From: Eubacteriales bacterium
GTDB taxonomy: Bacteria; Bacillota; Clostridia; Oscillospirales; CAG-272
Length of the DNA stretch: 47,361 nt
Assembly: GCA_045605745.1 (NCBI GenBank)
Contig: JAZUQN010000158.1
Coordinates: 1 to 47,361, forward strand
Direction of reading: 5' to 3'
In this document: positions 7,143-28,561 of the stretch, one piece after another
Layout: every line of letters starts with the position of its first letter
How positions within the stretch are numbered: position 1 is the stretch's first letter
The notes under the pieces: generated by a model
Told to the model about the DNA's origin: nothing
Databases searched by the model: none
The model's input: the letters and a program-made list of their open reading frames with translations, nothing else
Made by a program: the position numbers and the translations under genes

Positions 7143-8630
7143 TCACTGACCTGAAAAATAGTTGTCAAGCCAAAGATATCTATCCGAAAGCCATTTATAA
7201 AGATGCTTTGAATGTTGGCGATAATTCGCAAGTAAAACAACAACATCCGGCTCTTGATTGATACGGGATCCGAAAATATCCCATCTTTCAAAATTTCGGT
7301 CTATTGCGTTTTTCATTGAGCTTGCGGTATTCTCTGCCACAGAGGAAAGCTCCTTAAAAATCGGCTTTGTCTCCTCCCAGCGAGAAAAAACTTTGTCCTT
7401 AAACCACTGTTGCTTCATAAGGGCAATAAACCACTTGTTTTCCTGCTTTAAGCCAAGTCCGGCACCGTCTGCAACATAAATTCCCTCATGATCACCGCTA
7501 AAAAGTCTGCGGTCATTTCCTGCGGCAAGGTCAAGATCCCAAACAGGACCGAAATAGAGCTTTCCGCCATTCGGCTTTTTATACAAAAAGAATGAAGACC
7601 ATCCAACATCTATATTCAGCATAAATTCCTGAATAAGATACATATCAACTGCAGAATCAAGGTCAACAAGCTCCTCTATCTTCGCCTTGCTTCCACCGTT
7701 TATCGCCCTGTGAACCTCTGAAATATACTCTTTTATGAATTCCATCTGCTCGGTGCCGGCATCACTTTTAACCGTATACATCTGTCCGCCGGCAGTGAAA
7801 TATGTAACACCCTCAAGAGCACCCTCATCGTCATCGGCATATTGGTCAAGCTCTATAAGATATCCTGTGTCAAGCTCATTTGGATCAACGTTAATGTCAA
7901 CACGAGCTTGATGCACCTCAACCTGCTCGCAGAGCAGATACACTCCTTTATATGAGCCGTTTATCATAACCTCAACAAAGCTGCCGGAGGAGGTATACTC
8001 TATTCCGTCGAGCTGTCTTCCGAGATAAAAAGCAAGATAATTGCGAAGCAAGGTTTGATCGCAATGATTTGCAAGCAATATCCAATCCTTCGCTTCTCCT
8101 CTGCCCTGTCCCAAAAGATTCGTCTTTTTGCCAAGCTTTAATCTATAGGATTTTTTCTCCATTTTCCATGTTGCATTACCTCTTCCGCGGAGATCACCCT
8201 CAAGCTCCTCAAAGCAATATTCCTCTTCTGCATTTGAAACAGAAAGCTTGATAGGTGTATATTCGGTTTTTGAGGTCACTTCATCTCCATTTTCCATAGT
8301 AAAAGAAAACAGAGGAAGCTCACTTTTCGGCATGGCAAACTCTGCAAAGATAACGGTGTCACTATCAAAGCTTTCCTTATCTCTCTTTGAGCTGGTAACA
8401 CCGTCACTCCATCCAATAAATTCAAATCCGTCATTTGGCACTGCCATAACCCACTTGGTCTTTTTCCCCTTCCCTAGAGTTTGCTCGGGATATCCCTTTA
8501 CAGACCCGAAATTTTCATTGGCAGAACAATACTGAACACTGACAGTGCTAATTCCTGCATCATTTTCGCCGCATGATATCAAAAGAAAAAGTACAAAGAC
8601 GATAAGACAGTAAAAAAGTCTTTTTTTCAT
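7143..8630 (-). CDS. CotH family protein, predicted lipoprotein
   Basis: Lipobox LLISCGEN after the signal peptide MKKRLFYCLIVFVLFLL. CotH-like motifs KKSYRLKL, LRNYLAFYLGRQL and GPVWDLDLAAGN. GGGAGAG RBS precedes the ATG at 8630, so the track start at 8663 is rejected. Confidence 0.75.
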   Translation of the reverse strand: MKKRLFYCLIVFVLFLLISCGENDAGISTVSVQYCSANENFGSVKGYPEQTLGKGKKTKWVMAVPNDGFEFIGWSDGVTSSKRDKESFDSDTVIFAEFAMPKSELPLFSFTMENGDEVTSKTEYTPIKLSVSNAEEEYCFEELEGDLRGRGNATWKMEKKSYRLKLGKKTNLLGQGRGEAKDWILLANHCDQTLLRNYLAFYLGRQLDGIEYTSSGSFVEVMINGSYKGVYLLCEQVEVHQARVDINVDPNELDTGYLIELDQYADDDEGALEGVTYFTAGGQMYTVKSDAGTEQMEFIKEYISEVHRAINGGSKAKIEELVDLDSAVDMYLIQEFMLNIDVGWSSFFLYKKPNGGKLYFGPVWDLDLAAGNDRRLFSGDHEGIYVADGAGLGLKQENKWFIALMKQQWFKDKVFSRWEETKPIFKELSSVAENTASSMKNAIDRNFERWDIFGSRINQEPDVVVLLANYRQHSKHLYKWLSDRYLWLDNYFSGQ

Positions 8631-8739
8631 ATAAAATCTCTCCCTTCCCGGAGAATTCCACATACATTATATCATCAGCAAAAGAATATGTCAATTTTAT
8701 TTTCAAAAGTCATAAAAAAAACAAAAATTAAACAAACTA

Positions 8740-8807: not shown

Positions 8808-9962
8808 TTGATCGAAGTAAAAAATCTTGTTAAACGATATGGAAATCACACCGCAGTAAACGGCATCAGCTTCACGGTTGAGCCGGGTAAAATCTACGGT
8901 CTTCTTGGTCCAAACGGTGCCGGCAAATCCACAACAATGAATATCATAACCGGCTGTCTTGCCGCAAGTGACGGAACTGTAACAGTTAACGGTCACGATA
9001 TTTTTGAAGATCCAAAAGCAGCCAAAAAATGCATCGGATATCTGCCCGAAATTCCACCGCTTTATATGGATATGACACCGGAGGAATATCTCACATTTGT
9101 TGCAGAGGCAAAAAATGTTAAAAGCGGATATGTGCGCCACGATGTAAATGAGGTCATGGAAACAACCGGCCTTATCGAGATGAAGGATCGCCTTATACGC
9201 AACCTTTCAAAGGGCTATAAGCAAAGAGTTGGAATTGCACAGGCAATGCTCGGCTCCCCGGATATTATAATTCTTGATGAGCCCACAGTTGGCCTTGACC
9301 CAAAACAGATACTTGAAATCCGTGAGCTGATAAGAAAGCTGGGAGAAACAAAAACCGTTATTCTTTCAAGTCACATCCTTGCCGAGATCAGCGCAGTTTG
9401 CGAAAGGGTTATGATAATCTCTCACGGCAATCTTATTGCCAATGATACCTTGGAACACCTTGAAGAGCTCGCCAATCTTTCGGATAAGCTAAAGATAGGT
9501 GTGCGCGGCGACAAAGAAACCATAACTGCAAAGCTAAGGCAGATAGACGGTGTTCTTGACTTTAGCGAGGCTTCGCTTGGCGACGGAGTTATTGATATAA
9601 ATATAGATCTTTGTAAAGACAAGGATATCAGAGACGATATCTTTTTTGCAATGGCTGGCATAAAATGCCCAATTATTTATATGAATTATGAGAAAACAAC
9701 CCTCGAAAACATATTCCTTGCACTGACAGATGATGATATAGCTCCCGATGAAAACGGAACACTCCCATCGGTTGAAGATATCCTTAGCGGCAAGGCAAAA
9801 GCTGAAAAACAGGCTTCCTTTGAAAGCATGAGCGACTCAGAGCTTGAAGCACTTGCCGGCACAGAAGATGACGAGGAGATTGACTCCGAAGAAGAGGACA
9901 AAAATAACGATAATAACAAGGATGCCGACGGTGGCTACAAACCATTGTTTGGCGGAAATTAA
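8808..9962 (+). CDS. ABC transporter ATP-binding protein (ABC-2/GldA-like) with acidic C-terminal tail
   Basis: Walker A GPNGAGKST, signature LSKGYKQR, Walker B IIILDEPT. TTG start with a GGAGG RBS. The last ~80 aa are a D/E/S-rich low-complexity stretch. Confidence 0.9.
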   Translation: MIEVKNLVKRYGNHTAVNGISFTVEPGKIYGLLGPNGAGKSTTMNIITGCLAASDGTVTVNGHDIFEDPKAAKKCIGYLPEIPPLYMDMTPEEYLTFVAEAKNVKSGYVRHDVNEVMETTGLIEMKDRLIRNLSKGYKQRVGIAQAMLGSPDIIILDEPTVGLDPKQILEIRELIRKLGETKTVILSSHILAEISAVCERVMIISHGNLIANDTLEHLEELANLSDKLKIGVRGDKETITAKLRQIDGVLDFSEASLGDGVIDINIDLCKDKDIRDDIFFAMAGIKCPIIYMNYEKTTLENIFLALTDDDIAPDENGTLPSVEDILSGKAKAEKQASFESMSDSELEALAGTEDDEEIDSEEEDKNNDNNKDADGGYKPLFGGN

Positions 9963-9976
9963 GGAGGAAAAAGGAA

Positions 9977-10846
9977 ATGCTTGCAATATTTAAAAGAGAG
10001 TTTAAATCCTTTTTCAACGGTATTATAGGGTGGATATTTATTGCCTTTGTTCTGCTGCTTATGGGCATATTTGTAACGGCTATCAATATCTATTCAGGCT
10101 ATGCATCCTTTGAAAACACGCTTTCAAACATATGGCTTCTCAATGCGTTTATTGTTGCAATCCCATTGCTAACAATGCGTAGCTTTGCCGAAGAAAAAAA
10201 CACAAAAACAGATCAGCTTCTATATTCTCTCCCCATCAGCGTAGGCCAAGTTGTGCTTGGAAAATATCTGGCAATGCTGGCTGTCTTTGCAATTCCGGTT
10301 ATTCTGGTTTCAGTCTATCCATTCATTCTGAGTGCTTTCGGCTATATGGCATATAAGAGTGCATATCTTGCCCTTTTCGGCTTTTTCCTTCTTGGTGCTT
10401 CCCTTATCGCACTTGGAATGTTTATGTCCTCGCTCACAGAAAGTCAGGTGATAGCTGCCATAATCGGATATGTTTCGCTTTTCCTTATGAGCATGATGTA
10501 TATCTTTGTCAGTCTTATACCGAAAAGTGCTGTTGCCTCTCTTGTTTGTCTTATTGCTGTGGCAGCCATCATAGGCATTATTACATATTTGATGACAAAG
10601 AATTACGGCGTGTCTATCGGAGTGTTCCTTGCACTTTCCCTTGCAGTGATACTTTTTTACGCTATAAAGCCCTCTGTATTCTCCGGACTTTTCGGCTCTA
10701 TCCTAACTCATCTTGCACTCTTTGACCGTTTCAACGATCTGTGTGGCGGAATTATCGACATCACAGCTATTGTTTACCTTATCTCATTTGCAGTGTTCTT
10801 TGTTTATCTAACCGTTCAATCGGTTGAAAAACGCCGCTGGAGCTAA
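9977..10846 (+). CDS. ABC-2 type transporter permease (GldF-like)
   Basis: 289 aa and six predicted TM helices, immediately downstream of the ATPase. Confidence 0.75.
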   Translation: MLAIFKREFKSFFNGIIGWIFIAFVLLLMGIFVTAINIYSGYASFENTLSNIWLLNAFIVAIPLLTMRSFAEEKNTKTDQLLYSLPISVGQVVLGKYLAMLAVFAIPVILVSVYPFILSAFGYMAYKSAYLALFGFFLLGASLIALGMFMSSLTESQVIAAIIGYVSLFLMSMMYIFVSLIPKSAVASLVCLIAVAAIIGIITYLMTKNYGVSIGVFLALSLAVILFYAIKPSVFSGLFGSILTHLALFDRFNDLCGGIIDITAIVYLISFAVFFVYLTVQSVEKRRWS

Positions 10847-10859
10847 ACAGAAAGGAGTT

Positions 10860-12344
10860 ATGACGATGTTAAACTTAAATAAAAGAACTAAGATCGGCGC
10901 ATACACTCTTGTTATGGTGACACTGGCTCTTGCAGTGATAGTTGTTATTAACCTTTTGGTTTTAAATGCGCCAACAAAATACACAAAGATAGATGCAACT
11001 CTCCATTCACTATATACTCTGTCCGAAACCACCAAAGAAGCGATACCAAAGATAAATGAGGATATAAACATTTATCTTATATGCTCCGGAGGCACCGACG
11101 AAAGCGGAAGTCCGGTCAATAATCTTCCAAGCCTTTCGATATTTCTCAAAAAGTATTCTGAACTCAATGATAAAATAAAGTTCAGCATTATAGACCCCGT
11201 TGTAAACCCCACCTTTACCGATGCTTATGACGAAAACGGACTTGAAAATTATACCATCGTCGTCGAAAGTGCAAAGAGATTCAAGATAGTTGACTTTTCA
11301 GAGCTTTATTACTATTATGAGCAAAGCGTTGGAAAGGTTGCAACAGAACAGTATCAGAATTTTATGTACTACTATTATTACAGCTATGGTACATATCCAT
11401 CTCTCACTCTTCATTTTGACGGCGAAAACAGAATCACCTCCGCCCTTGACTATGTAACAACAGATCGCATACCTGCCCTTTATGTACTTGAAGGTCATGG
11501 CGAATCTGCCCCTTCTGAAACGCTAAAAAAGAGCATAATCGAGGACAATATGACCCTTGCTTCTATCAATCTGCTTACAACTGCTGTTCCCGAGGATGCA
11601 AGCTGTATCATAATCAACACCCCAACCTCTGATATCAATCCTGATGAAGCAAAAATGCTCTCCGACTATTTGGCAAAGGGTGGAAAACTGTTTATAACAA
11701 CGGTATATAACAGCTTAGAGCTTCCAAACCTTATGGGAGTCCTTGAAGAATACGGACTTTCCGCCTCTCAGGGAATGATTGTTGAGGGCGATGGAAATAG
11801 ACATTATAATAATTTTCCATACGGACTTTTGCCTATAGTCAGCTCAAGCAGCACGCTCACCGCTTCCCTTGCTTCATCATCCTATATATTTATGCCGTTT
11901 GCCCACGGCATAACAAGCGATGACACAAAAGAAGGCATGACATTTGTTCCGCTGTTTTCAACCTCAGATTCCTCCTATACCTTTGATGAGGCAGCCGAAA
12001 CCCTTGAAAAAACCGAAAATTCTGTAGAAGGGCCCTTTGATATCGGAGTTTATGCATATGATGAAAATAGCGCTTCACAAATAATTTGGTGTGCTTCACC
12101 TGCCTTCAGCGATGAAATGAACAGATACACGGGCGGAAACTACCAATATTTCATTTCAATGCTTGGCGGAGTTGTTGAAAGAGACAGAATAGTTTATAAT
12201 ATCCCTGCAAATGATATCTCAACCTCACGACTTATCGTAAGCGAAACTGCTGCAAACCTCTGGAGTGCAATATTCATACTTGTTGTGCCGCTTTCATTTG
12301 CCGTCATCGGATTCTTCCGTTGGCAATCAAGGAGACGCAGATGA
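10860..12344 (+). CDS. GldG-like ABC transport auxiliary component
   Basis: N- and C-terminal TM anchors flank a large extracytoplasmic domain. The position after the GldA/GldF-like genes fits this family. AAAGGAG RBS precedes the ATG at 10860. Confidence 0.65.
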   Translation: MTMLNLNKRTKIGAYTLVMVTLALAVIVVINLLVLNAPTKYTKIDATLHSLYTLSETTKEAIPKINEDINIYLICSGGTDESGSPVNNLPSLSIFLKKYSELNDKIKFSIIDPVVNPTFTDAYDENGLENYTIVVESAKRFKIVDFSELYYYYEQSVGKVATEQYQNFMYYYYYSYGTYPSLTLHFDGENRITSALDYVTTDRIPALYVLEGHGESAPSETLKKSIIEDNMTLASINLLTTAVPEDASCIIINTPTSDINPDEAKMLSDYLAKGGKLFITTVYNSLELPNLMGVLEEYGLSASQGMIVEGDGNRHYNNFPYGLLPIVSSSSTLTASLASSSYIFMPFAHGITSDDTKEGMTFVPLFSTSDSSYTFDEAAETLEKTENSVEGPFDIGVYAYDENSASQIIWCASPAFSDEMNRYTGGNYQYFISMLGGVVERDRIVYNIPANDISTSRLIVSETAANLWSAIFILVVPLSFAVIGFFRWQSRRRR

Positions 12345-13357
12345 AAAGACATATCAAGCTATTTATAATGCTGGGCATTTTGGCTGTGCTTGTTGTGTCG
12401 GCCATTATACAAAAGCAGTTTTTCCCGGCAGAGGTTGAATATGATTATACCGATGACGGAGGCTCAACTCTTCGCTATGCTGCAAACGATGTGAAAGCGG
12501 ATGGTGTAACCGAGCTTTCATATGAAATAAAGGATGAGGTGATCTCCTTTGTTAAAACAGATAGCGGCTGGATGCTCAAGGGCCAAAACGCCCCACAAAT
12601 AAAAACCGACCTTGCCGATGCTATGGTAAAGGCAATTTCAGGGCTTTCAGCAACAAACAAAATCGAGAATGTTGCGAAAGAAAAGCTGGAGGATTACGGT
12701 CTTACTCAGCCTTCTGTCACAGTTAAGGTAAGCGAAGGAAACAAAATAAGCATCTTCCTTTTAGGTGGGTATAATAAGACCACAAAAGAATATTATTTTT
12801 GTGATAAGAATATTCCCGATGTTGTGTTCACGGTTGAAAGCTCGGTATACGATGCTTTCCAGCATAGTATCAGTGATCTGATCGTCCATGAAACACTCCC
12901 GAAAATTGAAGCTGATAGCATAAATAAAATTTCTATCACAGGCGAAAGCGGAGAGATGGTTATTGAAAGTATAAAGACTCCCAACGATGAAAATGAAGAG
13001 GGTTATACATATTCAGCCATTATAACTAAAAACGGCGAGAGTGAAAAATATTCCTATGCTGATTTTTATAAAATAGCTGAGGAAATTTCAAATTGTAATA
13101 TAAATGATTTCGTGGGGGCAGATGAATCGGTGGGGAATGAATATGGTTTTGATAATCCAAAGATCCTAAAAATCGATTATATCGAGCGTCAAAGCATTGA
13201 AGCCGAGGGGGCCGCCGGTGGCTATATTGATACACCCAAAAGCCTTGAGCTAATTCTCGGCAGCACTGCCGAGGATGGCAAAAGCTACTGCAAAACAAGC
13301 GAAAAATCCTGGCTTATCTATAAGCTTTCAACCAAGATTTTTTCTCAAATTGAATAA
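12341..13357 (+). CDS. DUF4340-like membrane-anchored protein
   Basis: ATGA start/stop overlap with the upstream gene. Single N-terminal TM helix plus a beta-rich ectodomain. The call rests mainly on the usual synteny after gldG-like genes. Confidence 0.5.
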   Translation: MKRHIKLFIMLGILAVLVVSAIIQKQFFPAEVEYDYTDDGGSTLRYAANDVKADGVTELSYEIKDEVISFVKTDSGWMLKGQNAPQIKTDLADAMVKAISGLSATNKIENVAKEKLEDYGLTQPSVTVKVSEGNKISIFLLGGYNKTTKEYYFCDKNIPDVVFTVESSVYDAFQHSISDLIVHETLPKIEADSINKISITGESGEMVIESIKTPNDENEEGYTYSAIITKNGESEKYSYADFYKIAEEISNCNINDFVGADESVGNEYGFDNPKILKIDYIERQSIEAEGAAGGYIDTPKSLELILGSTAEDGKSYCKTSEKSWLIYKLSTKIFSQIE

Positions 13358-13363: not shown

Positions 13364-13404
13364 AGCACAGGTAGAGCAAATCGCTCTGCCTGTGCTTATT
13401 ATTC
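13364..13404 (+). terminator. intrinsic terminator of ABC operon
   Basis: AGCACAGGTAGAGC-aaatc-GCTCTGCCTGTGCT followed by TATTATTCT. Confidence 0.7.
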
Positions 13405-13531: not shown

Positions 13532-13560
13532 TTGCAATATGCGACAATTTGTGATAAAAT
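13532..13560 (+). promoter_or_regulatory. SigA-type promoter of MBOAT operon
   Basis: TTGCAA (13532-13537), 17-nt spacer, TGaTAAAAT (13555-13560). Confidence 0.5.
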
Positions 13561-13594
13561 AAAATGAATAATTATTTCAAAGGAAGAAATTAGA

Positions 13595-15010
13595 ATGATT
13601 TTTTCATCATACCGCTTTATTTTTGGATTTTTTCCAATAGTTTTTGCGGTTTTCTGCTTTTTGAGAACAATTAAAAAACCTTTGCTTATGAAAATTTGGC
13701 TTGTGACAGCATCACTTGCCTTTTATGCCATAGGTCAGGTTGATTTTTTTGTTTTTTTTCTGTTTTCTGTTTTCTTTAATTATCTGCTGATACGCATAAT
13801 TACAGCTTCAAACCAGAAAAAAAGTATTAAGCTCATTTGTCTTTTGCTATCAATTGCAGAAAACTTGGGACTACTGATATATTTCAAATATACAAACTTC
13901 ATCATAGAAAATCTTAACCGTATCCTGGGCACAAGCATAGGTGCTCTCTCTCTTATACTTCCTATAGGCATATCATTTTTCACTTTTCAGATACTCGCCT
14001 CTGTTGTTGCAGCTTATAAAGGAGAGATTGAAAATAAATCACTTGTGGATTATATGCTGTTCATCACATTTTTTCCTCAGCTTATAGTTGGTCCAGTGGT
14101 TATGCACCACGAGCTTCTCCCACAGCTGGAGGATCAGAAGCTCCTTACATATGACAAAAATGACATAATGAAAGGAATTATGCTATTTTCTATCGGTGCA
14201 GCAAAAAAGGTTATCCTTGCCAACCCGATGATAAATTTTGCAACAGCCTTTTATAGCGGTGATATCATATCCTCCGGCAGTGTCTATGCTTGGCTTGGCG
14301 TTATCTCATTTACCTTCGCTTATTATTTTGACTTTTCCGGATATGTGGATATGGCAAGAGGTCTTGGCCAGCTTTTCGGTATAAGGCTCCCCATAAACTT
14401 TGATTCTCCCTATAAAGCCCGGGATTTTGCCGATTTCTGGAGACGCTGGAATATAACCATATCCCGTTTTTTCAACGATACTGTTTTCAGCAATCTATTT
14501 GGTTTTGGTGACAGAATACCAAAGCTTATCTTTGCAACTCTTGCAACCTTTCTCGTTTCGGGAATTTGGCACGGCGCAGCGTGGCATTACATAATCTGGG
14601 GGCTTGTCTGCGGCATACTCGTTGCCATTTCCAACATTATGACTCTATATCGAATTAAGCTGCCTACCTTTATTTCATGCAGCATCACTTTTATTGTTAT
14701 GATGCTTGTGCGAGTATTATTTGATGCAGAGTGCATGACAGACGCTCTTCTGGTATACGGCAAGCTGTTTTCCTTTGATGGCGGCATCGGTACCCTTGTC
14801 ACCACTGTCACAGAGAATGTTTCTCTTATCCTGACCATAATTGCTTCCGCAGTCATCTGCTTCTGCTTTGAAAACGCAAATTCGCTTTGTCCCGAACAAG
14901 GAGAAGGCAAAAAATTAGGGGCACTGCATATAGTCTTTGCCGCATTTCTACTGGTTCTCTCTCTTGTTAATATGTCAAGCGTTTCAACATTTCTTTATTT
15001 CAATTTTTAA
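13595..15010 (+). CDS. MBOAT family O-acyltransferase (DltB/AlgI-like)
   Basis: 471 aa polytopic protein with MBOAT-type motifs (FWRRWNITISRFF, SGIWHGAAWHY including the conserved His). Confidence 0.85.
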   Translation: MIFSSYRFIFGFFPIVFAVFCFLRTIKKPLLMKIWLVTASLAFYAIGQVDFFVFFLFSVFFNYLLIRIITASNQKKSIKLICLLLSIAENLGLLIYFKYTNFIIENLNRILGTSIGALSLILPIGISFFTFQILASVVAAYKGEIENKSLVDYMLFITFFPQLIVGPVVMHHELLPQLEDQKLLTYDKNDIMKGIMLFSIGAAKKVILANPMINFATAFYSGDIISSGSVYAWLGVISFTFAYYFDFSGYVDMARGLGQLFGIRLPINFDSPYKARDFADFWRRWNITISRFFNDTVFSNLFGFGDRIPKLIFATLATFLVSGIWHGAAWHYIIWGLVCGILVAISNIMTLYRIKLPTFISCSITFIVMMLVRVLFDAECMTDALLVYGKLFSFDGGIGTLVTTVTENVSLILTIIASAVICFCFENANSLCPEQGEGKKLGALHIVFAAFLLVLSLVNMSSVSTFLYFNF

Positions 15011-15019
15011 GGGGATAAA

Positions 15020-16852
15020 ATGTCACTTAAAAAACAATTATCAATTTTTGCGGCAGCGTGCCTTGTTTTTGCACTGCTCTATGCCGCATTCAACGCTCTG
15101 ATCGATCCTTTTGGGGTGTTTGGAGACATTATCTTTGATTATTATGAATACAATATGACCCAAAATCCGCGAGTTGCCAAGATCGCTTATATTGAAAAGA
15201 ACAGCGAAAAATATGATTCATATATCTTTGGCTGTTCAAAGTCCTCCTCATATTCTGTGGAGGAGCTTAACGAATATCTTGATGCAAGCTTTTTCAATAT
15301 GTTTGCCTATGGCGGTGACCTTGCAGATATTGAAAAAATGGCTGCATATGTTATCGGAAACAAAGAGGTAAAAAACCTTGTGCTCGCCATAGGGCCTGAG
15401 GCGGCATATCGCTATGACAGCGAAGAGGATTCCATTAAGGATAATTTGCACTGCAAAGTCGATAAAAATATAAATCCGCTTTTGTTCTATGGAAAGTATC
15501 TTTTTCTCAACCCAGCCTACGCCCTTGACAAGATAGATTCTTATTTTAAAAGATCCTACCTTCCCGATGCCTCAAATGTTTTTATCCCCGAAAGCGGTGC
15601 TTATAACAAGAGTCGCAGAGATGCAATGTCCATCTCTCATATTGATACCTATTATTCGGATATGGCAGGGGCAGAATTTAATATGACTCATCCTCGTCCG
15701 CTTGATTATATTGATGAGGCAATATCGTCGGTTGAAGCCATAAAAAATGCCTGCGACATGGCAGGTATAAATTTCATTCTCATCGGATCTCCCATGTATG
15801 ACGGCGAAATCGCCTGCTATGACCCATATGAAATTGCTGAGCTAACAACAAAGCTCGCCAATGTCACCGAATTTTATAATTTCTGGGGCTACAACGCTTT
15901 TTCTCATGACGCCCGCTATTTCTATGACGGATATCATTTCAGAAATGCTGTTGGCAGTGCGGCCCTCGGCTATATTTTCGGAAACGAAAATATTTATATC
16001 CCCAAAAGCTTTGGCAGAATAACAAGCTCTGAAAGTGTTGATTTTGACCTTGTCCAAATGAACAATGAGTCCTTTGGCAAAGACGAGTTACTTGAAACGC
16101 AAATTCCAATTCTTATGTATCATGCACTCACCGAAAAGGAGGAGGAAGCAAGCTCCACCATCATCACTGTTTCTGCATTTGAAGAACAGATCTCTGCCAT
16201 CAGTGAGGAAGGATATACTGCAGTTTTCCTTGGGAATCTTATCTCCTATGTGGAAAATGGTGAGCCACTTCCCGAAAAACCTATAGTAATCACCTTTGAT
16301 GACGGATATACATCAAATCTCAGCCTTGCATTGCCTATACTGCAAAAATACGGTCAGTGCGCAACTACAAATGTTATCGGTGTAAGTATAGGAAAGGACA
16401 CATACAAGGACACGGGCAAAGAAATGTTCTCCCATTTCAGCCTCAAGGAAGCTAAAAAAGCACATGAAATGGGCATTTTCGATTTCCAATCGCACACATA
16501 TGATATGCACCAAAATTCCTATGACAGCGACCCGAGAGACGGTGTATTGCCAAAGTCGGGGGAAAAGGAAAAGGATTATATAGAGGCTCTTAAAAATGAT
16601 TTTGAACACTCAAAATCACAGCTTGAAGACGGTATTGGCAATAAGGTTTTTGCCATAGCATATCCTCACGGAAAATATACCGAGCTTACCGATGTGGTTC
16701 TCATGCAAAGCGGTGCAAAGGTCAGCATTTCCGTGGAGCCCGGAGTAAATTATATACTGAAAGGCTTGCCTCAATCACTAAGAGGCCTTTGCCGATTTAA
16801 TATGACAAATGAAATAAGCGGAGAAGAGCTTATAAAAATGATAACCCAATAG
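15020..16852 (+). CDS. fusion protein: DltD/SGNH-like N-domain + NodB-type polysaccharide deacetylase C-domain
   Basis: N-terminal TM anchor. The C-terminal half has NodB motifs ITFDDGY and SHTYDMH. The N-terminal half has FGCSKSS and DGYHF, which resemble the DltD Ser and Asp..His motifs; that part of the call is tentative. Confidence 0.65.
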   Translation: MSLKKQLSIFAAACLVFALLYAAFNALIDPFGVFGDIIFDYYEYNMTQNPRVAKIAYIEKNSEKYDSYIFGCSKSSSYSVEELNEYLDASFFNMFAYGGDLADIEKMAAYVIGNKEVKNLVLAIGPEAAYRYDSEEDSIKDNLHCKVDKNINPLLFYGKYLFLNPAYALDKIDSYFKRSYLPDASNVFIPESGAYNKSRRDAMSISHIDTYYSDMAGAEFNMTHPRPLDYIDEAISSVEAIKNACDMAGINFILIGSPMYDGEIACYDPYEIAELTTKLANVTEFYNFWGYNAFSHDARYFYDGYHFRNAVGSAALGYIFGNENIYIPKSFGRITSSESVDFDLVQMNNESFGKDELLETQIPILMYHALTEKEEEASSTIITVSAFEEQISAISEEGYTAVFLGNLISYVENGEPLPEKPIVITFDDGYTSNLSLALPILQKYGQCATTNVIGVSIGKDTYKDTGKEMFSHFSLKEAKKAHEMGIFDFQSHTYDMHQNSYDSDPRDGVLPKSGEKEKDYIEALKNDFEHSKSQLEDGIGNKVFAIAYPHGKYTELTDVVLMQSGAKVSISVEPGVNYILKGLPQSLRGLCRFNMTNEISGEELIKMITQ

Positions 16853-16868
16853 TCGAGAGGAGAAAGAA

Positions 16869-17102
16869 ATGACAACAAAAGAAATATTGCTGAACTTTTT
16901 TGAAAAGGAAAAAAAGATAAACGGAATTGATGAAAACACAGACCTATTTAAAGAGGGCCATGTCAACTCCCTTTTCGCCCTTGAAATGGTGGTCTTTCTT
17001 GAAAAAACCTTTTCACTTAAAATCCCCAGAAAGGAAATGAATAAGGCAAATTTCACAAGCGTTGGCGCAATGGCGGCACTTGTTGAAAGGCTGAAAAAAT
17101 AA
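16869..17102 (+). CDS. acyl/peptidyl carrier protein (DltC-like)
   Basis: 77 aa with GHVNSLFALEMVVFLE, a candidate phosphopantetheine Ser at codon 34 (16968-16970). Confidence 0.7.
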   Translation: MTTKEILLNFFEKEKKINGIDENTDLFKEGHVNSLFALEMVVFLEKTFSLKIPRKEMNKANFTSVGAMAALVERLKK

Positions 17103-17103
17103 A

Positions 17104-18129
17104 ATGGCAAAAGAAGCAAAAATCAAATGTCTCGTTTTTGACCTGGACTGCACCATCTGGGATGGCGTGCTATCTGAAGGCGGTGGAAAGAGGCTGATAG
17201 AGGGTATGCGTGAATTTATCCTTGAGCTTGACAGGCGTGGGATAATTATGAGCATTGCATCAAAGAATGATTTTGATGCGGCAATGGCAAATCTTCGTAG
17301 GTTTGGGCTTGAGGAATATTTTCTTTGTCCCTCTATCGGATGGGGTGCAAAATCAGATTCGATAAAAAGCATCATATTAGATCTTGGCATAAAGCCGGGA
17401 GCTGTTGCCTTTATTGACGATAATCCCTTTGAGCGTGACGAGGTGGCATTTGCACTGCCCGATGTGAGAACATATGATGCGGCCTGCTTTAAAACACTGA
17501 CAGGGCTTGATGAATTTACCCCCGTGTTCATAACCGAAGATGCAAAAAACAGAAGAAATATGTATCGGGCAGACTATAGACGAAAGGCAGATGAAGCCTC
17601 CTTTGGCGGCTCTGCAGAGGAATTTCTCAAAACTCTCGGAATGAAGCTCCAAATTTTGCCCGTTTGCGAAGATGACCTACAAAGAGTTCATGAGCTGACA
17701 CTCCGCACACATCAGCTAAACTCAACCGGATACACATATGATTTTGAACAGCTCAAAGCCCTTATCGATTCTGACAGTCATATTTTCCTGATAGCTTCTT
17801 TAAAGGATAAATACGGTGACAGTGGCAAGGTTGGCATTATGCTTTTGGAAAAGCATCCGGAGCATTATGCTCTCAAGCTGCTCATTGTTTCATGCAGAGT
17901 TATGTCAAGGGGAATCGGAACTGCGCTTTTAACATATGCAGTTAGGCGGGCAAACCAAGATGGAAAAAAGCTGTTTGCTGAGTTTAAGGAAACCGAGCAC
18001 AACAGAATAATGTATATCACATATAAAATGATGGGATTTGATGAGGTAAGTGAAAAGGGCGATGACATACTTCTCAGGTACGCAGAGGATGAGATCCCCT
18101 CTTTTCCGCCCTATCTTGAAATAGAATAA
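17104..18129 (+). CDS. HAD-IIIC family / FkbH-like protein
   Basis: HAD motif I FDLDCTIWDG, motif II IASKN, motif IV FIDDNPFERDEV. The C-terminal domain has VSCRVMSRGIG, typical of FkbH-like loaders. Confidence 0.75.
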   Translation: MAKEAKIKCLVFDLDCTIWDGVLSEGGGKRLIEGMREFILELDRRGIIMSIASKNDFDAAMANLRRFGLEEYFLCPSIGWGAKSDSIKSIILDLGIKPGAVAFIDDNPFERDEVAFALPDVRTYDAACFKTLTGLDEFTPVFITEDAKNRRNMYRADYRRKADEASFGGSAEEFLKTLGMKLQILPVCEDDLQRVHELTLRTHQLNSTGYTYDFEQLKALIDSDSHIFLIASLKDKYGDSGKVGIMLLEKHPEHYALKLLIVSCRVMSRGIGTALLTYAVRRANQDGKKLFAEFKETEHNRIMYITYKMMGFDEVSEKGDDILLRYAEDEIPSFPPYLEIE

Positions 18130-19808
18130 TGAAACGTATTTTAGTTTTTATTTGCATAGCTTTTTCTCTTTTTTTCTGTTCTTGCGAAAATCGCTCTCCT
18201 TTCCCGGTAAATAACACAAATTCTCCACAAAGTAAGAATAATCATACCTCCTCCATAAATATCACTGAGGTAGGTGTTAGTATATGCGGCGAAAGCATTA
18301 ATATCCAGAAGGATGCAGGCGGCAGTGGCTTCACCCTATATCTTCCGGCGTTTTCGGGAGATGCAGTATGGATTCTGCCCCATAAAACATTGATTATGGG
18401 CAAAGAAGCTTCAAGTGGTGACAGTGCAGATGTGCTATATAGTGCATCTAAGATAGAAATTGCAGGACAAAGCGTCAAAATAATGCGCTCCGCCAATATC
18501 CCTTCGCTGTTTTTAAATTCTGATGAGGGCACTATGTCAAACATAGATAATAGTCCCGATCATTCCTACGGAACTCCGGGAGATTTTTCCCTCATCTCAT
18601 CCGATGGCGAGCTCCTTTCGGCAGGAAGGCTTAAAAAGATTCGCGGCAGAGGAAATGCCACATGGCACGGAACGGAGAAAAAGCCTTATCAAATTGAATT
18701 TTCATCTTCTGTGTCAATTTTAGGTCTTGCCAAGTCCAAAAAATATATTTTGCTTGCAAATTATTATGACCCTTCTCTTATGCGCAACAGCATCGCCTTT
18801 GACATTGCTAAGATATCGGAAGATTATTCAGTTTCAGGCGAGCCAATTGACCTTTATGCCTGCGGTGAATATCTTGGGGCTTATCTTATTTGTGAAAAAA
18901 TCGATATTTCGGAAAACAAGATTGATATTTTTGATCTTGAAAAGGCAACCGAAAAAGAAAATGCCGAAAATCTTGAAAATTATGAGCGCGGCGGTAGTGT
19001 TTTGGGCACAGAGAACGGAAGCTCAAAATGGTTTAGCTTGCCAAATGACCCTGCCGACATAAGCGGAGGCTATCTATTAGAGGTCGAATATACCGAGCGA
19101 TATCCTGAGGAGGTAAGCGGATTTGTTACAAGCAGAGGCTTGCCCGTTGCAATTGTATCTCCAAAATATGCATCAAAAGCGCAGGTAGAATACATAAAAA
19201 ATTTCTTTTGTGATTTTGAGGATGCCTTGTATTCGCCAACCGGTTATAATGAAAAGGGCAAGCATTACAGCGAATATGCTGATATAGATTCGATTATATT
19301 CAGATATTTATTTGAGGAATTTGCCCTGAACATAGATGGTGGTATTTCAAGCTTTCACATCTATAAGGACACCGATAAAAATGGGGGAGAGCTGATTTTT
19401 TCCTGCGTTTGGGACTATGACTGCTCCTTTGGAAATTATAATAAGCATGCTGATCTGACATCCTTTGAAACCCTTTTCACAGGAGAGAGCGAAAGGCGAA
19501 ATCAAGGGGCGATGCCTTCATATTTCAACGCAATGCTGGGACATGATGAGATTGTATCGAGAGTTAGAGATTATTATAAAAATATATTCAGAAAAGGAGC
19601 TTTAGAGGCGCTTGCAGACATCGATCGCCGATTTGAATACATAAAAGCATCAGCAGAAATGGATGCATGGCTTTATTCTTCTTTTTCTGCTCACAGCTTT
19701 TATGGAGCAAACTGTGGAAGTACTCCAAGTGAGGCCTGTAATTATTTAAAGGATTTCATAAGCGGACGAATCAAATTTTTCGATATGCATTTCGGATATG
19801 ACGGATAA
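18129..19808 (+). CDS. CotH family protein, predicted lipoprotein (second paralog)
   Basis: Lipobox LFFCSCEN. CotH-like motifs KKPYQIEF, MRNSIAFDIA and CVWDYDCSFGN. TAATG overlap with the upstream stop. Confidence 0.75.
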   Translation: MKRILVFICIAFSLFFCSCENRSPFPVNNTNSPQSKNNHTSSINITEVGVSICGESINIQKDAGGSGFTLYLPAFSGDAVWILPHKTLIMGKEASSGDSADVLYSASKIEIAGQSVKIMRSANIPSLFLNSDEGTMSNIDNSPDHSYGTPGDFSLISSDGELLSAGRLKKIRGRGNATWHGTEKKPYQIEFSSSVSILGLAKSKKYILLANYYDPSLMRNSIAFDIAKISEDYSVSGEPIDLYACGEYLGAYLICEKIDISENKIDIFDLEKATEKENAENLENYERGGSVLGTENGSSKWFSLPNDPADISGGYLLEVEYTERYPEEVSGFVTSRGLPVAIVSPKYASKAQVEYIKNFFCDFEDALYSPTGYNEKGKHYSEYADIDSIIFRYLFEEFALNIDGGISSFHIYKDTDKNGGELIFSCVWDYDCSFGNYNKHADLTSFETLFTGESERRNQGAMPSYFNAMLGHDEIVSRVRDYYKNIFRKGALEALADIDRRFEYIKASAEMDAWLYSSFSAHSFYGANCGSTPSEACNYLKDFISGRIKFFDMHFGYDG

Positions 19809-19835
19809 TCCCGATATTACGATGATAACAAATAA

Positions 19836-19868
19836 AATGGCTGAGACAAAGACTCAGCCATTTTTGAT
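19836..19868 (+). terminator. intrinsic terminator of MBOAT/CotH operon
   Basis: AATGGCTGAG-acaaaga-CTCAGCCATT followed by TTTTGATTTT. Confidence 0.75.
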
Positions 19869-20054: not shown

Positions 20055-21155
20055 TTATAATACCTTTTCAAGCCACTCAACCGCTGCTACAACATATTGC
20101 TTCAGTGATTCAGTATTTACCATAACAACAAGTGCTGCCCAAAGCAGATTGTTTATAAGGCTGAAGAACCACTTATTGTGTCTTGCAAAAATATTAACCT
20201 TATATTGGAATCTCTTTACAAGCGATGCCAACTTATTTTCAAGCGTCTTCTTATTAAAATCGACAATATAAAGATACTGCTTTTTGCTCTGCGGATCTTC
20301 AAAGCAAGGTTCATCCTCAATAACAGGATGTCGAATAAGAAAACTGTTAATATCCTTGAAATGGTCCTTGAAATTATCCATTGTATCCGAATCAAAAATG
20401 TTAAGCGCCTTGCCAAGACCGGCAACATACATTCTGATCCTTATCCAGCGAATATAGAAAATTATAAGTGTGATTGCTTTTAGCGCAGGAATAAATGTAA
20501 GGAGCAGACCAAGACTGTTTATGATAAACTCAATTGTGGGCTTTTCTGCTGCTGCAGCAAGCTCGCCCGCAAGCCAAGTGTCAAGAAAATACTTTGCTCC
20601 AAAGAACACCGCTATCAAGGGCAGAATAATTCTGATAAGCACATTGACAAAATGATGTCCGAATTTTGTATTGAACACCTTGGAGTTTTTATCCTTTACA
20701 ACCTCTATCTCCTCATCTCTGCGATTTCTGGTCATCTGACAGTTGATAAAGAAGCTGTCAAGAGTTCCATCAAGAAATGTTTTGTAAAACTCCTCTATAT
20801 CTGCCGGAGTTTCATAATCATCCTCGAAAAAGCTTTTGATAAACCCAACCGGCAAGAGCTCTTCGTTAAATTTCACAAAATAGTTATCGATAATGCGAGT
20901 AGTTACACCATTCAGCTTTTTCGGCTTATCGTGATTGATCATATAATAATACGGATCGTTGTTGAAATAGTCCAAAAATTCTTCATATGTATTTGCATCA
21001 ACACACTTATTCTGCCTTATGCTAAGCAATACATTATCTGATTCGTTGGAATGGCTCTCATATTCATTTCTCGCAATTTTATTATAGAGCCACTTATATG
21101 CCTGCTTCTTGACATAGTTAGTCACTCTGCGATCCCTGGATGTAATCGAGTACAT
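20055..21155 (-). CDS. hypothetical polytopic membrane protein (366 aa), last gene of cluster
   Basis: GAAGGAG RBS. A ~165-aa soluble N-domain is followed by hydrophobic helices (FVNVLIRIILPLIAVFFGA, IINSLGLLLTFIPALKAITLIIFYI, WFFSLINNLLWAALVVMV). I recognise no family motif. Confidence 0.7.
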   Translation of the reverse strand: MYSITSRDRRVTNYVKKQAYKWLYNKIARNEYESHSNESDNVLLSIRQNKCVDANTYEEFLDYFNNDPYYYMINHDKPKKLNGVTTRIIDNYFVKFNEELLPVGFIKSFFEDDYETPADIEEFYKTFLDGTLDSFFINCQMTRNRRDEEIEVVKDKNSKVFNTKFGHHFVNVLIRIILPLIAVFFGAKYFLDTWLAGELAAAAEKPTIEFIINSLGLLLTFIPALKAITLIIFYIRWIRIRMYVAGLGKALNIFDSDTMDNFKDHFKDINSFLIRHPVIEDEPCFEDPQSKKQYLYIVDFNKKTLENKLASLVKRFQYKVNIFARHNKWFFSLINNLLWAALVVMVNTESLKQYVVAAVEWLEKVL

Positions 21156-21204
21156 TTATAATGTCTCCTTCGTTTGTTATTTTTTATACTTTGTTTTTAT
21201 TGCT

Positions 21205-23721
21205 TCATGGAGCTTTTTCTGCTCCGGTATCAGGCGCAGAGGTGCTTTCGGGCGCATCTGTGCTTTCTTCTGTAGATTCTTCAGCTGTTTCATCATTAGC
21301 ATCACTTTCAGGGACACTGTCTAAAGCCTCAGTATCTGTGCCTCTATCAGTGTCTGTGTCAGTTGATATGCCACTGTCATCTCCTCCAAAAAGGTTTTCA
21401 GGCTCTTTCTTTGTATCAGTGCTGATATCCGTTGTGTCAGATTCACTTTCAGAATCTGCTCCGGAAATCACATCCGAAACTGCAGGAGTATCAGTCCCAC
21501 CCACAACGTCGGTATCCTTTGGAGCACCGCCGCCGAAAAGCCCGAATTTGACCACAACAATAGCAACCAAAACAGCCACAATTGCCACGCCCACAACTAT
21601 TGGTGCAATGGGTGCGGATTTTCCAATGACAACCGGAATATCGCTTTTATGTGAGCAATAGTTTTTCCAAACTTTCGATAGCATTTCAGCAAAAGCTTTA
21701 GTGTTTTTGCCGCAATTTCGTGTATCAATGCCGGCAATTCGATTTGTGATGCTATCCGAAAGCGCCTCTGGCATATTTTCAATACCTTTTAGCCTTAGTC
21801 TAACAATATTTGAAACTGCATTTGTGCACGCCAATGCTACTTCAAGCTCAAGATTATCATATGCCTCGCAATTTTCACCGAAGACAAATTTTATAAGCTC
21901 AATCATAACTGCATTTAACGGCAGATATGCAGCCATAAATTTAACAGAGGTAACAAGGTCAATTTTCCCTACCACAAGGGCAACCTGAATTATGAAATCA
22001 CCACCGTGCATCCTGCAAATATCATCAACAATATTCAAATGAGGCGAGTTTTCATCAGGCTTTGCATAAAGAACATACTGCTCAACGGCATTCTTTAAAG
22101 TGTGCTTATCATTTGCAAACAATTTACAAACGTTGCTGAGCGCAACAACAGTGTCAGGTGACTTTGGTGTGTTGAGAGCTTCTCTATATGCGCCAAGCAC
22201 CCTCATCTTCTCCTCGATTGTAACGCCCGTAGGTCTTTCAATCTTTGGAGGATAGGTTTCATTATGCTTTTTAAGATATACGCCTGCCATAGATTTGATG
22301 TAAGGTGCCATATCATAGCCCTTGGCCTTGGCATCCTCCAAGATCTTGCCGCATCCATCAACGAGCCACGCTCTTGCATTTGCAAGCCTGTCATCGGTAA
22401 TATGCTCGTGCGGAACATTAGGACGCTGCATCATATCTGCTACGGTTTTCTCAACATCGTTCTTTAAAGCTTCGATTTCGGCAATTCTGTTTTGCACAGC
22501 CGAAGCCATAGCGTTAAATGCTCTGTAAAACTCAACCTTATAGAAGGCTGCAGAGCTGTCTTCAAGAGGCTTAAAACTGTTTTTCAGCTTTCCGATAAGA
22601 GCATCATCAAGCTTTTGAACCTTAAAAAATTCAACAAAAATATCACGAATAGCTACAAATGCACTTTCCGGACACATCGCACAAAGCTTTTTAATGCCCA
22701 GTGTGTTCTTTTTAAGGAGTGATTGGTGGTCGATCATTTCATCAACACTTCCTATAGAAAACGGCTTAAATCCGTCAAAGTGTCCCGAGAGATTTTGCAA
22801 AACAAAATTCGGTATATCCTTGCTTGTTGGATTTTCCAGAGTGATAAGATACTCATCAAGCAGCTTTTCACAAAGATCAGCATCATTTTTTACATAGGCC
22901 CTGAAAAACTCCACAAACTGCTTTGGCTTATAGTTTGAACCGAAGCCATTGCAAAAGATATCATATTCTGCAAAAAGCTTTCCAACCTCTTCCGCACTAT
23001 CCCTCATCGCTCCAACAAGATGACTGACTATTCCGGTAAATTCCGGAATAACTGCCCCTTCATACGCAGAATCGTTTAAAGGAATCCTGACACCGCTTGC
23101 ATTTTTTGCCAAGCTGAGTGGCAGAATGCGAACTCTGAAGCTTTCAGCATCCGGAACACCTGTTATAAACGAGCAAGATTTTTTAAGAGTCGGCGGCATA
23201 TATCTGAAAAGCTTATACATCAAAATGCGAGCATACTCATTGCTATAAAGCTCGTCACTGACTGCGATAATAATGCTCTCGCCATTATAGATACGAGCAA
23301 GTATTTCAGTTGCAGCCTGAGCCGACATAGGAATATTATCGGAGCCTTTTGCATAGAGCTCTATATCCACTCCGCCAATAGCTCCGGGCATTTCTCCTTG
23401 GCGCAAGGCATCAATCGTGCCCTGCTCTGCAAACATCGCAAGCAAATTTTCTTCAAAATTTTTGCTTTGATAATAGCCTTTGACAGCCTTTTGATATATT
23501 CCGTGGATATAATATGCCTCGCGGTTATAGCTTGTGTCCTTTTTGGCACTAAAGAACAAGGGCTGATTGCTGTTTGCTCCAAAGGTCATAAAGCCATAGG
23601 CATCAATATTTGCATTAATATTAATTTTTATCAGCTCTCTGACTCTTGCCGCCTCATTTTGATCATCGGCAAAGAGCACACCATAGCCATTATTCTTGTC
23701 ACTTCCAAAAATAAATTGCAT
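21205..23721 (-). CDS. hypothetical 838-aa tail-anchored protein with acidic S/T/D-rich C-terminal tail
   Basis: No signal peptide. A ~700-aa mostly helical region is followed by a single TM helix (IAPIVVGVAIVAVLVAIVVV, about 21550-21618). A 114-aa D/E/S/T-rich tail follows (21208-21549). Confidence 0.75.
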   Translation of the reverse strand: MQFIFGSDKNNGYGVLFADDQNEAARVRELIKININANIDAYGFMTFGANSNQPLFFSAKKDTSYNREAYYIHGIYQKAVKGYYQSKNFEENLLAMFAEQGTIDALRQGEMPGAIGGVDIELYAKGSDNIPMSAQAATEILARIYNGESIIIAVSDELYSNEYARILMYKLFRYMPPTLKKSCSFITGVPDAESFRVRILPLSLAKNASGVRIPLNDSAYEGAVIPEFTGIVSHLVGAMRDSAEEVGKLFAEYDIFCNGFGSNYKPKQFVEFFRAYVKNDADLCEKLLDEYLITLENPTSKDIPNFVLQNLSGHFDGFKPFSIGSVDEMIDHQSLLKKNTLGIKKLCAMCPESAFVAIRDIFVEFFKVQKLDDALIGKLKNSFKPLEDSSAAFYKVEFYRAFNAMASAVQNRIAEIEALKNDVEKTVADMMQRPNVPHEHITDDRLANARAWLVDGCGKILEDAKAKGYDMAPYIKSMAGVYLKKHNETYPPKIERPTGVTIEEKMRVLGAYREALNTPKSPDTVVALSNVCKLFANDKHTLKNAVEQYVLYAKPDENSPHLNIVDDICRMHGGDFIIQVALVVGKIDLVTSVKFMAAYLPLNAVMIELIKFVFGENCEAYDNLELEVALACTNAVSNIVRLRLKGIENMPEALSDSITNRIAGIDTRNCGKNTKAFAEMLSKVWKNYCSHKSDIPVVIGKSAPIAPIVVGVAIVAVLVAIVVVKFGLFGGGAPKDTDVVGGTDTPAVSDVISGADSESESDTTDISTDTKKEPENLFGGDDSGISTDTDTDRGTDTEALDSVPESDANDETAEESTEESTDAPESTSAPDTGAEKAP

Positions 23722-23782
23722 ATTTTCCCCTTTCTGTTTGCCAAAGCTAAAATGCTATAGCAAACAATGGTTAATATTATCT

Positions 23783-28538: not shown

Positions 28539-28561
28539 GAGAAGCTCCTTTCGATTGTGTA

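Follow-up and report, generated by a model that had tools for sequence, protein, structure and literature searches.

Two acyl donors only are established for the modification of bacterial envelope polymers by a membrane-bound O-acyltransferase (MBOAT) together with its SGNH partner: acetyl-CoA and D-alanyl-DltC. By a mechanism established for PatA and DltX, the tyrosine of an FxYxxF motif becomes covalently acylated, and the SGNH partner draws on this intermediate; the motif lies on the DltX microprotein in Dlt systems and is fused to the C terminus in PatA and other acetyl-CoA MBOATs (PMC12148441). The non-Dlt MBOAT/SGNH pathways are stated to have no carrier protein (PMC12148441). In secondary metabolism, an FkbK-ACP-FkbI-FkbH set makes hydroxymalonyl-ACP (ACP, acyl carrier protein) by way of glyceryl-ACP formed from 1,3-bisphosphoglycerate (PMC7489565; PMC5355916), and ZmaN, ZmaD, ZmaG and ZmaE are named there as hydroxymalonyl-ACP enzymes (PMC5355916). 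Here we analyse an operon in which proteins of both kinds are encoded side by side. It lies in a 47,361-nucleotide stretch from an uncultured gut bacterium of the Eubacteriales, class Clostridia (contig JAZUQN010000158.1; hereafter the window), and its core genes encode an MBOAT, an SGNH acyltransferase fused to a carbohydrate esterase family 4 (CE4) domain, an ACP and an FkbH enzyme.

On the reading we favour, to which we give slightly better than even chances, glyceryl-S-ACP made from 1,3-bisphosphoglycerate would pass its acyl group to a tyrosine of the MBOAT, then to the SGNH serine and finally to a wall polymer that contains N-acetylglucosamine (GlcNAc) and is also edited by the CE4 domain. 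All of this beyond domain identity and synteny is what we infer. A preliminary description of the locus had called it a Dlt-like operon without DltA and had suggested that a carrier-protein/MBOAT relay might decorate an envelope polymer with a glyceryl or other non-amino-acyl group. The latter idea is partly supported, by the conservation of FkbH, the type of ACP and the recurrence of the module, and is the best-supported hypothesis at hand. The Dlt-like framing did not survive: the resemblance is one of analogy and not of descent, as the MBOAT lies outside the DltB clade and the SGNH domain has no sequence similarity to DltD.

The FkbH enzyme and its carrier protein

The FkbH-like assignment, proposed earlier from motifs, was upheld by profile scanning. 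The protein scores 255.6 bits on the FkbH domain model TIGR01686 (cut-off 146.65) and 54.6 bits on the HAD-IIIC model TIGR01681 (cut-off 35.75); on TIGR01686, an FkbH from a polyketide synthase/nonribosomal peptide synthetase (PKS/NRPS) cluster and one from a zwittermicin-type cluster reach 285.7 and 262.2 bits. The HAD-IIIC motifs already noted by eye (DLDCT, SKN and DDNPFE), together with SCRV, are real: in an alignment of 23 homologues, D13, L14, D15, T17, S53-K54-N55, D105-D106 and S263-C264-R265-V266 are all invariant, and C16 is the sole variable position of DLDCT. Cys264 of SCRV we take to be the catalytic cysteine, as in OzmB and FkbH. The only solved structure matched by sequence is the HAD half of BF1531 (3slr).

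The enzyme is 45-52% identical to FkbH enzymes of hydroxymalonyl/methoxymalonyl-ACP cassettes, and along its whole length it shares 48% identity with the FkbH from an NRPS/PKS cluster on a Bacillus thuringiensis plasmid, where the gene order is that of the zwittermicin cluster. Conserved positions were compared between 18 FkbH proteins encoded beside an MBOAT and SGNH-CE4 protein as in the window (hereafter the module, or cassette) and 69 others, mostly PKS-type by the spacing of their ACP genes. Conservation of 90% or more in each group is seen at 70 positions, just three (187, 221 and 228) are group-specific, and the catalytic-motif residues, K54 excepted, reach that level among the non-cassette proteins too. 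At conserved positions the window enzyme is thus indistinguishable from bona fide glyceryl-ACP-forming FkbH enzymes.

What the operon does not encode also bears on the predicted product. FkbI-type and FkbK-type dehydrogenases are absent from the window operon by domain scan; both are present in a comparison locus from Paenibacillus pini (L018), where a 3-hydroxyacyl-CoA dehydrogenase, an ACP, an acyl-CoA dehydrogenase and FkbH stand in the classical FkbK-FkbJ-FkbI-FkbH arrangement within a PKS/NRPS cluster. Domain scans of the window and of the cassette loci also found the module to be without a methyltransferase, ketosynthase, FabH-like enzyme, condensation domain or PKS/NRPS. With all of these enzymes missing from the module, the glyceryl thioester would be neither oxidised nor condensed, and strong homology makes glyceryl-S-ACP the expected cytoplasmic end product. 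In this first step, FkbH would take 1,3-bisphosphoglycerate, its HAD-IIIC half (DxDxT) would remove the 3-phosphate, and the glyceryl group, held on Cys264, would be handed on to the phosphopantetheine arm that Ser34 of the ACP carries.

The relay could also run as proposed with a different cargo, the ACP carrying an acyl group drawn from another acyl phosphate or altered after loading (lactyl, glycolyl or phosphoglyceryl). Substrate choice is unreadable from sequence, the three group-specific FkbH positions do separate cassette enzymes from the rest, and a related FkbH protein of Sinorhizobium meliloti, described below, bears an extra domain of ~270 residues. To our knowledge, however, all biochemically studied FkbH homologues use 1,3-bisphosphoglycerate; the window enzyme has all catalytic motifs and 70 other positions in common with PKS-cluster enzymes, and the module encodes no modifying enzyme. 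We regard a cargo other than plain glycerate as rather improbable.

The carrier protein, which had been recognized by an NSL phosphopantetheine-type site, is confirmed as such: it passes the PP-binding model PF00550 (22.7 bits; cut-off 20.8), and Ser34 lies in GHVNSLFAL. It is 29-51% identical to ACPs encoded near FkbH genes in non-cassette loci, one of which was checked and is a PKS cluster. As the serine motif VNSLFA[LM] is common to the window protein and to those ACPs, the NSL site is a hallmark of FkbH-partner ACPs, and we assign the window ACP on these grounds to the FkbJ/ZmaD type. Its gene ends 1 nt before the FkbH gene, as befits a dedicated adjacent partner.

These observations bear on whether the locus could be a Dlt-type system after all, its ACP charged with D-alanine, or some other amino acid, by a ligase encoded elsewhere and FkbH acting merely as a phosphatase. 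The absence of a DltA-type adenylating enzyme, as first described, held: no AMP-binding domain occurs in the scanned window ORFs (open reading frames) of at least 150 residues, overlapping shadow ORFs not being scanned, nor in the cassette loci elsewhere. Just 47 kb of this genome is visible, so a DltA could lie beyond it, and the ACP does score weakly on the DltC model NF003464. That score, however, is 27.5 bits where the cut-off is 68, the protein does better on other ACP models (up to 40 bits), and it has the VNSLFA motif. The ACP and FkbH genes, besides their 1-nt spacing, also travel as a pair in locus L010; FkbH keeps its transferase half and the SCRV cysteine in addition to the HAD half; and the MBOAT, as shown next, falls outside the DltB clade. 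A Dlt-type system with a distant ligase is therefore, in our estimation, very improbable.

Proposed membrane transfer and the likely wall-polymer acceptor

The first gene encodes an MBOAT (PF03062, E 1.6e-25) that had been described as DltB/AlgI-like. The MBOAT and AlgI parts of that description stand, and the DltB part does not. In tblastn searches of annotated plasmids, identity to generic AlgI/PatA-type MBOATs is 30-38% and extends over 80-93% of the length (E down to 1e-68), and annotated DltB genes give 25-30% over ~50% (E 1e-15 to 1e-23). The sole NCBIfam match is the DltB equivalog TIGR04091, at 145.6 bits against a cut-off of 375, and the only sequence matches in the PDB are DltB structures; these two results, at first sight in favour of DltB, mirror what those libraries contain. 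The protein is ~60 residues longer than DltB and by hydropathy has two extra C-terminal hydrophobic segments (residues 404-429 and 439-469), after which its final six residues, FLYFNF, form an FxYxxF motif. This C-terminal end is FLYF[NQ]F or FLYMEF in 11 of 11 cassette orthologues examined, and the window contains no DltX-like small ORF with FxYxxF, the motif being fused to the MBOAT instead. With AlgI/PatA-type proteins clearly closer and the shuttle motif fused, we rejected its identification as DltB and class the MBOAT, by sequence, as AlgI/PatA-type and outside the DltB clade.

The second protein had been called a membrane-anchored DltD-like/NodB fusion, a label that is right about the anchor and the NodB domain and needs qualifying for DltD. 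Pfam offers no matching family for its first 350 residues. The AlphaFold2 model, built with 32 homologues, has a pLDDT of 92 for the whole protein, the SGNH domain predicted on its own reaching 83, and in Foldseek searches of the PDB this domain finds DltD structures best, then GDSL lipases and PatB. No DltD sequence match was obtained by Pfam at E up to 10 (five orthologues) or by PDB profile search, so that membership of the DltD family by sequence was rejected and only a resemblance in fold remains. S73, N93, D303 and H306 are invariant even in SGNH relatives just 15-17% identical, encoded beside MBOATs in Bacilli and S. meliloti, and we read these four residues as the SGNH catalytic signature. 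With an N-terminal transmembrane helix ahead of this signature, the protein is predicted to be an SGNH transferase that is anchored in the membrane, works outside the cytoplasm and has a deacetylase fused to it.

The deacetylase half is the better matched. CE4/NodB (PF01522) is found at residues 416-566 (E 5.9e-15; 55.8 bits, cut-off 23.1), and Foldseek returns PplD, PgaB, IcaB and BpsB with E values of 1e-17 to 1e-12 and a target-normalised TM-score of ~0.8. No variation is seen at H368, D427, D428, H492 and H497, which align with PgaB H55, D114, D115, H184 and H189; with all PgaB-type catalytic residues kept, the domain is probably a catalytically competent de-N-acetylase. In a plasmid search with the SGNH domain, no SGNH-CE4 fusion was found in an annotated isolate.

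From these parts the remaining steps can be proposed. The unmodified glyceryl thioester would be presented to the cytoplasmic face of the MBOAT, where His326 would catalyse transfer of the acyl group to Tyr468 of FLYFNF, at the outer face. Ser73 of the SGNH domain, working with the Asp303/His306 pair, would then accept the acyl group and deliver it to a polymer as an ester, possibly an amide. The fused CE4 domain may de-N-acetylate GlcNAc of the same polymer, so that deacetylation would be coupled to glycerylation. As cassette flanks are never polysaccharide-synthesis genes and the CE4 relatives act on GlcNAc, a ubiquitous wall polymer is the likely acceptor; most likely, we infer, it is peptidoglycan, or else a secondary wall polysaccharide or teichoic-type polymer that bears GlcNAc.

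That the SGNH transferase is obligatorily fused to a GlcNAc de-N-acetylase with the look of an active enzyme raises a bolder idea, an acyl swap outside the cell in which the CE4 domain strips the N-acetyl group from GlcNAc of peptidoglycan or of a wall polysaccharide and the SGNH domain re-acylates the freed amine, or a neighbouring hydroxyl, with ACP-derived glycerate. We think this unlikely. Were it true, N-glyceroyl-glucosamine would result, a recoding of the wall glycan after its assembly that would be common in gut Clostridia, and the MBOAT would be the first of AlgI/PatA type shown to take an acyl group from a carrier protein.

Recurrence of the module and limits of the operon

The case that ACP and FkbH serve the MBOAT and SGNH-CE4 protein is strengthened by their recurrence. 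A scan for FkbH homologues, one genome per species, gave 80 loci, which we sorted by tblastn with the window proteins. Fourteen, all from Clostridia or Bacillota, hold window-type MBOAT, SGNH-CE4, ACP and FkbH genes; L001-L005, from earlier contig look-ups, grouped with the cassette carriers, L003 being exceptional in its MBOAT. More than 60 of the 80 (from Paenibacillus, Streptomyces, Sorangium, cyanobacteria, Acidobacteria and others) are without the MBOAT/SGNH-CE4 cassette, and in most of these the ACP gene lies ~1.2-1.5 kb upstream of FkbH. In all, the four genes occur together in ~20 Clostridia/Bacillota loci with unrelated flanks, in constant order save in L029, where the MBOAT/SGNH-CE4 pair is inverted, and with intergenic gaps mostly <100 nt (1-16 nt in the window). 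A reverse look-up from three divergent SGNH-CE4 proteins (43-45% identical) recovered the full module in all three, MBOAT upstream and ACP plus FkbH downstream. SGNH-CE4 and FkbH each have >2000 homologue clusters, the FkbH set including PKS-type enzymes. Many cassette hosts are Clostridia known as metagenome-assembled genomes from gut, rumen and digesters, and the nearest relatives of the window proteins come mostly from gut and rumen Clostridia.

A second occurrence lies far from these. On pSymB of S. meliloti 1021 (L090; NC_003078.1, ~634.8-640 kb), beside autoinducer-2 (AI-2; lsr) uptake genes, the same order is found: an MBOAT ending in FLYQGF, a 409-residue SGNH-like protein, an 83-residue ACP and a protein, of 628 residues where its gene is intact, whose C-terminal 330 residues score 287.8 bits on the FkbH model. 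The set differs in its FkbH architecture, with the ~270-residue extra domain already mentioned, and has no CE4 domain. The 1021 record has the FkbH gene broken across two reading frames, and in strain ml56 (L098) it is intact, at 628 residues; the ml56 SGNH partner is annotated 'TonB-dependent receptor', which looks like a misannotation. Of the computational arguments that ACP and FkbH serve the MBOAT and its SGNH partner, this independent recurrence is the strongest.

Several observations weigh against a glyceryl relay. The MBOAT groups by sequence with AlgI/PatA-like proteins, whose characterised members take acetyl-CoA. In an HMMER alignment, the helix on which DltB docks DltC (M302, V305, I306, M309 and K312) is ~7 residues shorter and unconserved here, only the equivalent of R317 being retained among the DltC-contact residues; as the contact helix is shorter and its residues are lost, the ACP, if it docks on this MBOAT at all, would not use the DltB solution. 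Bacilli hold homologous MBOAT and SGNH pairs without ACP or FkbH, inside wall-polysaccharide loci. The ACP-FkbH pair stands alone in L010, among housekeeping genes (Rex, UvrA and UvrB), and L003 has SGNH-CE4, ACP and FkbH with no MBOAT in the fetched locus, which covers 5.7 kb upstream of SGNH-CE4 and 8 kb downstream of FkbH. Finally, the fold match of the SGNH domain to DltD is weak, whether the whole protein is searched or the domain re-predicted alone (Foldseek E 8e-4 to 1.5e-3, probability 1.0, TM-score 0.41-0.45).

Part of this evidence would fit an explanation in which the MBOAT and SGNH-CE4 protein are an ordinary acetyl-CoA O-acetylation/deacetylation pair resembling PatA/PatB or PatA1/PatB1, and the ACP and FkbH, mere neighbours, serve an unlinked acceptor. 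The closest annotated MBOAT relatives are indeed generic AlgI/PatA-type and not DltB, the fused shuttle motif is typical of acetyl-CoA MBOATs, the DltC-docking residues are unconserved, and the pairs in Bacilli manage without ACP and FkbH. Mere neighbours, however, would have to account for four genes kept together amid unrelated flanks in ~20 loci and in three of three reverse look-ups, for a second origin of the same combination in S. meliloti, where FkbH is built differently, and for a module that offers glyceryl-ACP no other user (no ketosynthase, FabH, condensation domain or dehydrogenase). We hold acetyl-CoA as the donor to be unlikely, and retain the ACP-borne glyceryl group as the favoured donor.

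Some of the loci surveyed merit separate mention. Both L003 and L004 belong to Clostridiales Family XIII and are listed with L010 as incomplete versions of the module; in L003, two unannotated proteins of 760 and 326 residues are encoded divergently upstream. In L001 and L002 (Candidatus Enterenecus), a 4'-phosphopantetheinyl transferase (ACPS) gene lies divergently just upstream of the cassette, and a fusion of a family 2 glycosyltransferase (GT2) with GtrA and a 627-residue protein without Pfam match follow downstream; these neighbours suggest a connection with the glycosylation of a wall polymer outside the cytoplasm. Bacilli that encode SGNH-partner homologues were rejected as cassette carriers, having the MBOAT and SGNH genes only. 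Also rejected, as a culturable example, was plasmid p5 of B. thuringiensis BT-59 (L091), in which, after an MBOAT ending in FLYFNF and a 357-residue SGNH partner, there is a transposase-like ORF and then only a HAD-IIIC remnant of 112 residues, on the opposite strand; broken by an insertion sequence (IS) element, this locus looks like a decayed cassette.

In the window, the ORF list confirmed the four tightly packed genes at the positions and lengths first described (Table 1), the gaps between them being 9, 16 and 1 nt. The end of the operon had been set too early, at 18129: a CotH-family gene, with 1 nt shared between its start and the FkbH stop (TAATG), extends the unit to 19808. Because hairpins and a promoter-like site bracket these packed, same-strand genes, we predict a single transcription unit of five genes. 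No riboswitch or leader was found upstream of the operon at the Rfam gathering threshold, and the GC content of the region is unremarkable. The CotH gene trails the cassette also in relatives 77% identical with different flanks and is missing from all but closely related cassettes; we rejected it as a core component and treat it as a lineage-specific accessory gene.

Table 1. Features of the operon in the window (nucleotide positions of the whole stretch)
Feature	Position	Strand	Length	Remarks
Terminator-like hairpin closing the upstream ABC/DUF4340 unit	13364-13396	+		14-bp stem, 8 GC pairs, then T-rich tail
Promoter-like site TTGCAA-17-TAAAAT, extended TG	13532-13560	+		consensus match only
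Ribosome-binding site AAGGAAG before first ATG of MBOAT gene	13581-13587	+		sequence read directly
MBOAT gene	13595-15010	+	471 aa	ORF list
Catalytic His326, in WHG (predicted)	14570-14572	+		aligns with DltB catalytic His336
Acyl-shuttle hexapeptide FLYFNF (FxYxxF)	14990-15007	+		last six residues before stop; Tyr468 predicted acyl acceptor
SGNH-CE4 fusion gene	15020-16852	+	610 aa	ORF list
N-terminal transmembrane anchor (aa 3-28) and SGNH acyltransferase domain	15020-16069	+		DltD-like fold
SGNH key residues	Ser73 15236; Asn93 15296; Asp303 15926; His306 15935	+		
CE4 polysaccharide de-N-acetylase domain	16082-16852	+		PgaB/IcaB/PplD type; His368, Asp427, Asp428, His492, His497
Carrier protein (ACP) gene	16869-17102	+	77 aa	ORF list
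Phosphopantetheine-attachment Ser34	16968-16970	+		in GHVNSLFAL
FkbH gene	17104-18129	+	341 aa	ORF list
FkbH motifs	DLDCT from 17140; SCRV from 17890	+		SCRV contains Cys264
CotH-family gene	18129-19808	+	559 aa	ORF list; PF08757, E 7.9e-26; secreted or lipoprotein, signal peptide
Terminator-like hairpin ending the operon	19834-19864	+		12-bp stem, then T run

On the minus strand, 5 kb upstream of the operon, is another CotH-family gene (7143-8663; E 2.9e-47), which has a Flg_new_2 repeat, so that the window encodes two secreted CotH proteins. Directly upstream (8808-13357) is a GldA/F/G-like ABC set (ATPase, permease, ABC_transp_aux with DUF7088, and DUF4340), separated from the operon by a hairpin. 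Downstream, eight large minus-strand genes (20055-34915), mostly without Pfam match, include those for a 1190-residue protein with a Tubulin_2 domain (E 2e-40), a 527-residue protein with a weak DO-GTPase2 match and a Colicin_V-domain protein; the block looks like a tubulin-like/GTPase island. Beyond it, a T-box leader (Rfam RF00230, 110 bits; 35295-35556) precedes a gene for an enzyme dependent on pyridoxal phosphate (PLP; 35606-36898).

Significance and comparison with known systems

The first description knew of no characterisation of the proposed chemistry for envelope polymers, and this stands: we found no published account linking FkbH or glyceryl-ACP to an MBOAT, an SGNH protein, DltB, DltD, AlgI or a wall polymer or polysaccharide, though the literature covered is incomplete and absence there is not proof. 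If the glyceryl relay is correct, it has several implications. First, a glycolysis-derived hydroxy-acyl thioester on an ACP would be a third type of donor for MBOAT-SGNH envelope acylation. Second, the wall would gain a new polar, non-cationic substituent. Third, AlgI/PatA-type MBOATs would prove rewirable to carrier-protein donors. Finally, a building block of secondary metabolism, FkbH with its ACP, would be linked to cell-envelope chemistry. As the module is common and its nearest relatives are mostly from gut and rumen Clostridia, the product could affect resistance to lysozyme or antimicrobial peptides, phage adsorption or host recognition of commensal cell walls. The pSymB gene set of S. 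meliloti offers a genetically tractable test bed.

Carrier-protein-dependent envelope modification outside Dlt is also represented by AlmEFG, which modifies Vibrio cholerae lipid A with glycine; it uses a DltA-like ligase and an LpxL-type acyltransferase at the cytoplasmic face, and no MBOAT, SGNH protein or FkbH. The CE4 domain has the fold of PgaB, IcaB, BpsB and PplD, the de-N-acetylases of poly-N-acetylglucosamine (PNAG) or of rhamnopolysaccharide linkage GlcNAc, with the same His, Asp-Asp and His-x4-His residues; unlike them, it is fused C-terminally to an SGNH acyltransferase within an acylation operon.

The Dlt system (DltA, DltB, DltC, DltD and DltX), which D-alanylates teichoic acid, is alike in its logic: a loader in the cytoplasm acylates a small carrier protein, an MBOAT carries the acyl group across the membrane to the tyrosine of FxYxxF, and a membrane-anchored protein of DltD-like SGNH fold delivers it to the polymer. 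The components differ. Where Dlt adenylates with DltA, the loader here would be an FkbH acting on an acyl phosphate without ATP-dependent adenylation; the predicted acyl group is glyceryl and not D-alanyl; the shuttle motif is fused to the MBOAT, whereas Dlt's is on the DltX microprotein; and the ACP is FkbJ-type and the SGNH partner, without DltD sequence similarity, is fused to CE4.

Closer in their membrane components are the PatA/PatB, AlgI/AlgJ/AlgX and Bacillus PatA1/PatB1 pairs, in which an MBOAT of the same subtype, with two extra helices ending in FxYxxF and a catalytic histidine, works with an SGNH transferase that is a protein of its own, likewise anchored in the membrane. In the known pairs the donor is acetyl-CoA and, as stated in the literature, no carrier protein takes part, whereas the window operon includes an ACP and its FkbH loader, which argue for the ACP as the donor to the MBOAT; its SGNH protein, moreover, bears a CE4 deacetylase domain. 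In the cytoplasm, the nearest counterparts are the FkbH/FkbJ modules that make glyceryl-ACP for polyketides (ZmaN/ZmaD, OzmB, Tmn16 and Mad7/Mad8), with homologous FkbH and ACP and the same motifs. The operon differs in encoding neither FkbI/FkbK dehydrogenases nor an O-methyltransferase, a FabH-like enzyme or PKS/NRPS proteins; the predicted consumer here is instead a membrane acyltransferase that would act on a cell-envelope polymer. All the parts are thus of known kinds, and what is new is their combination: an AlgI/PatA-type MBOAT with a carrier protein as donor, FkbH as loader and a fused CE4 domain.

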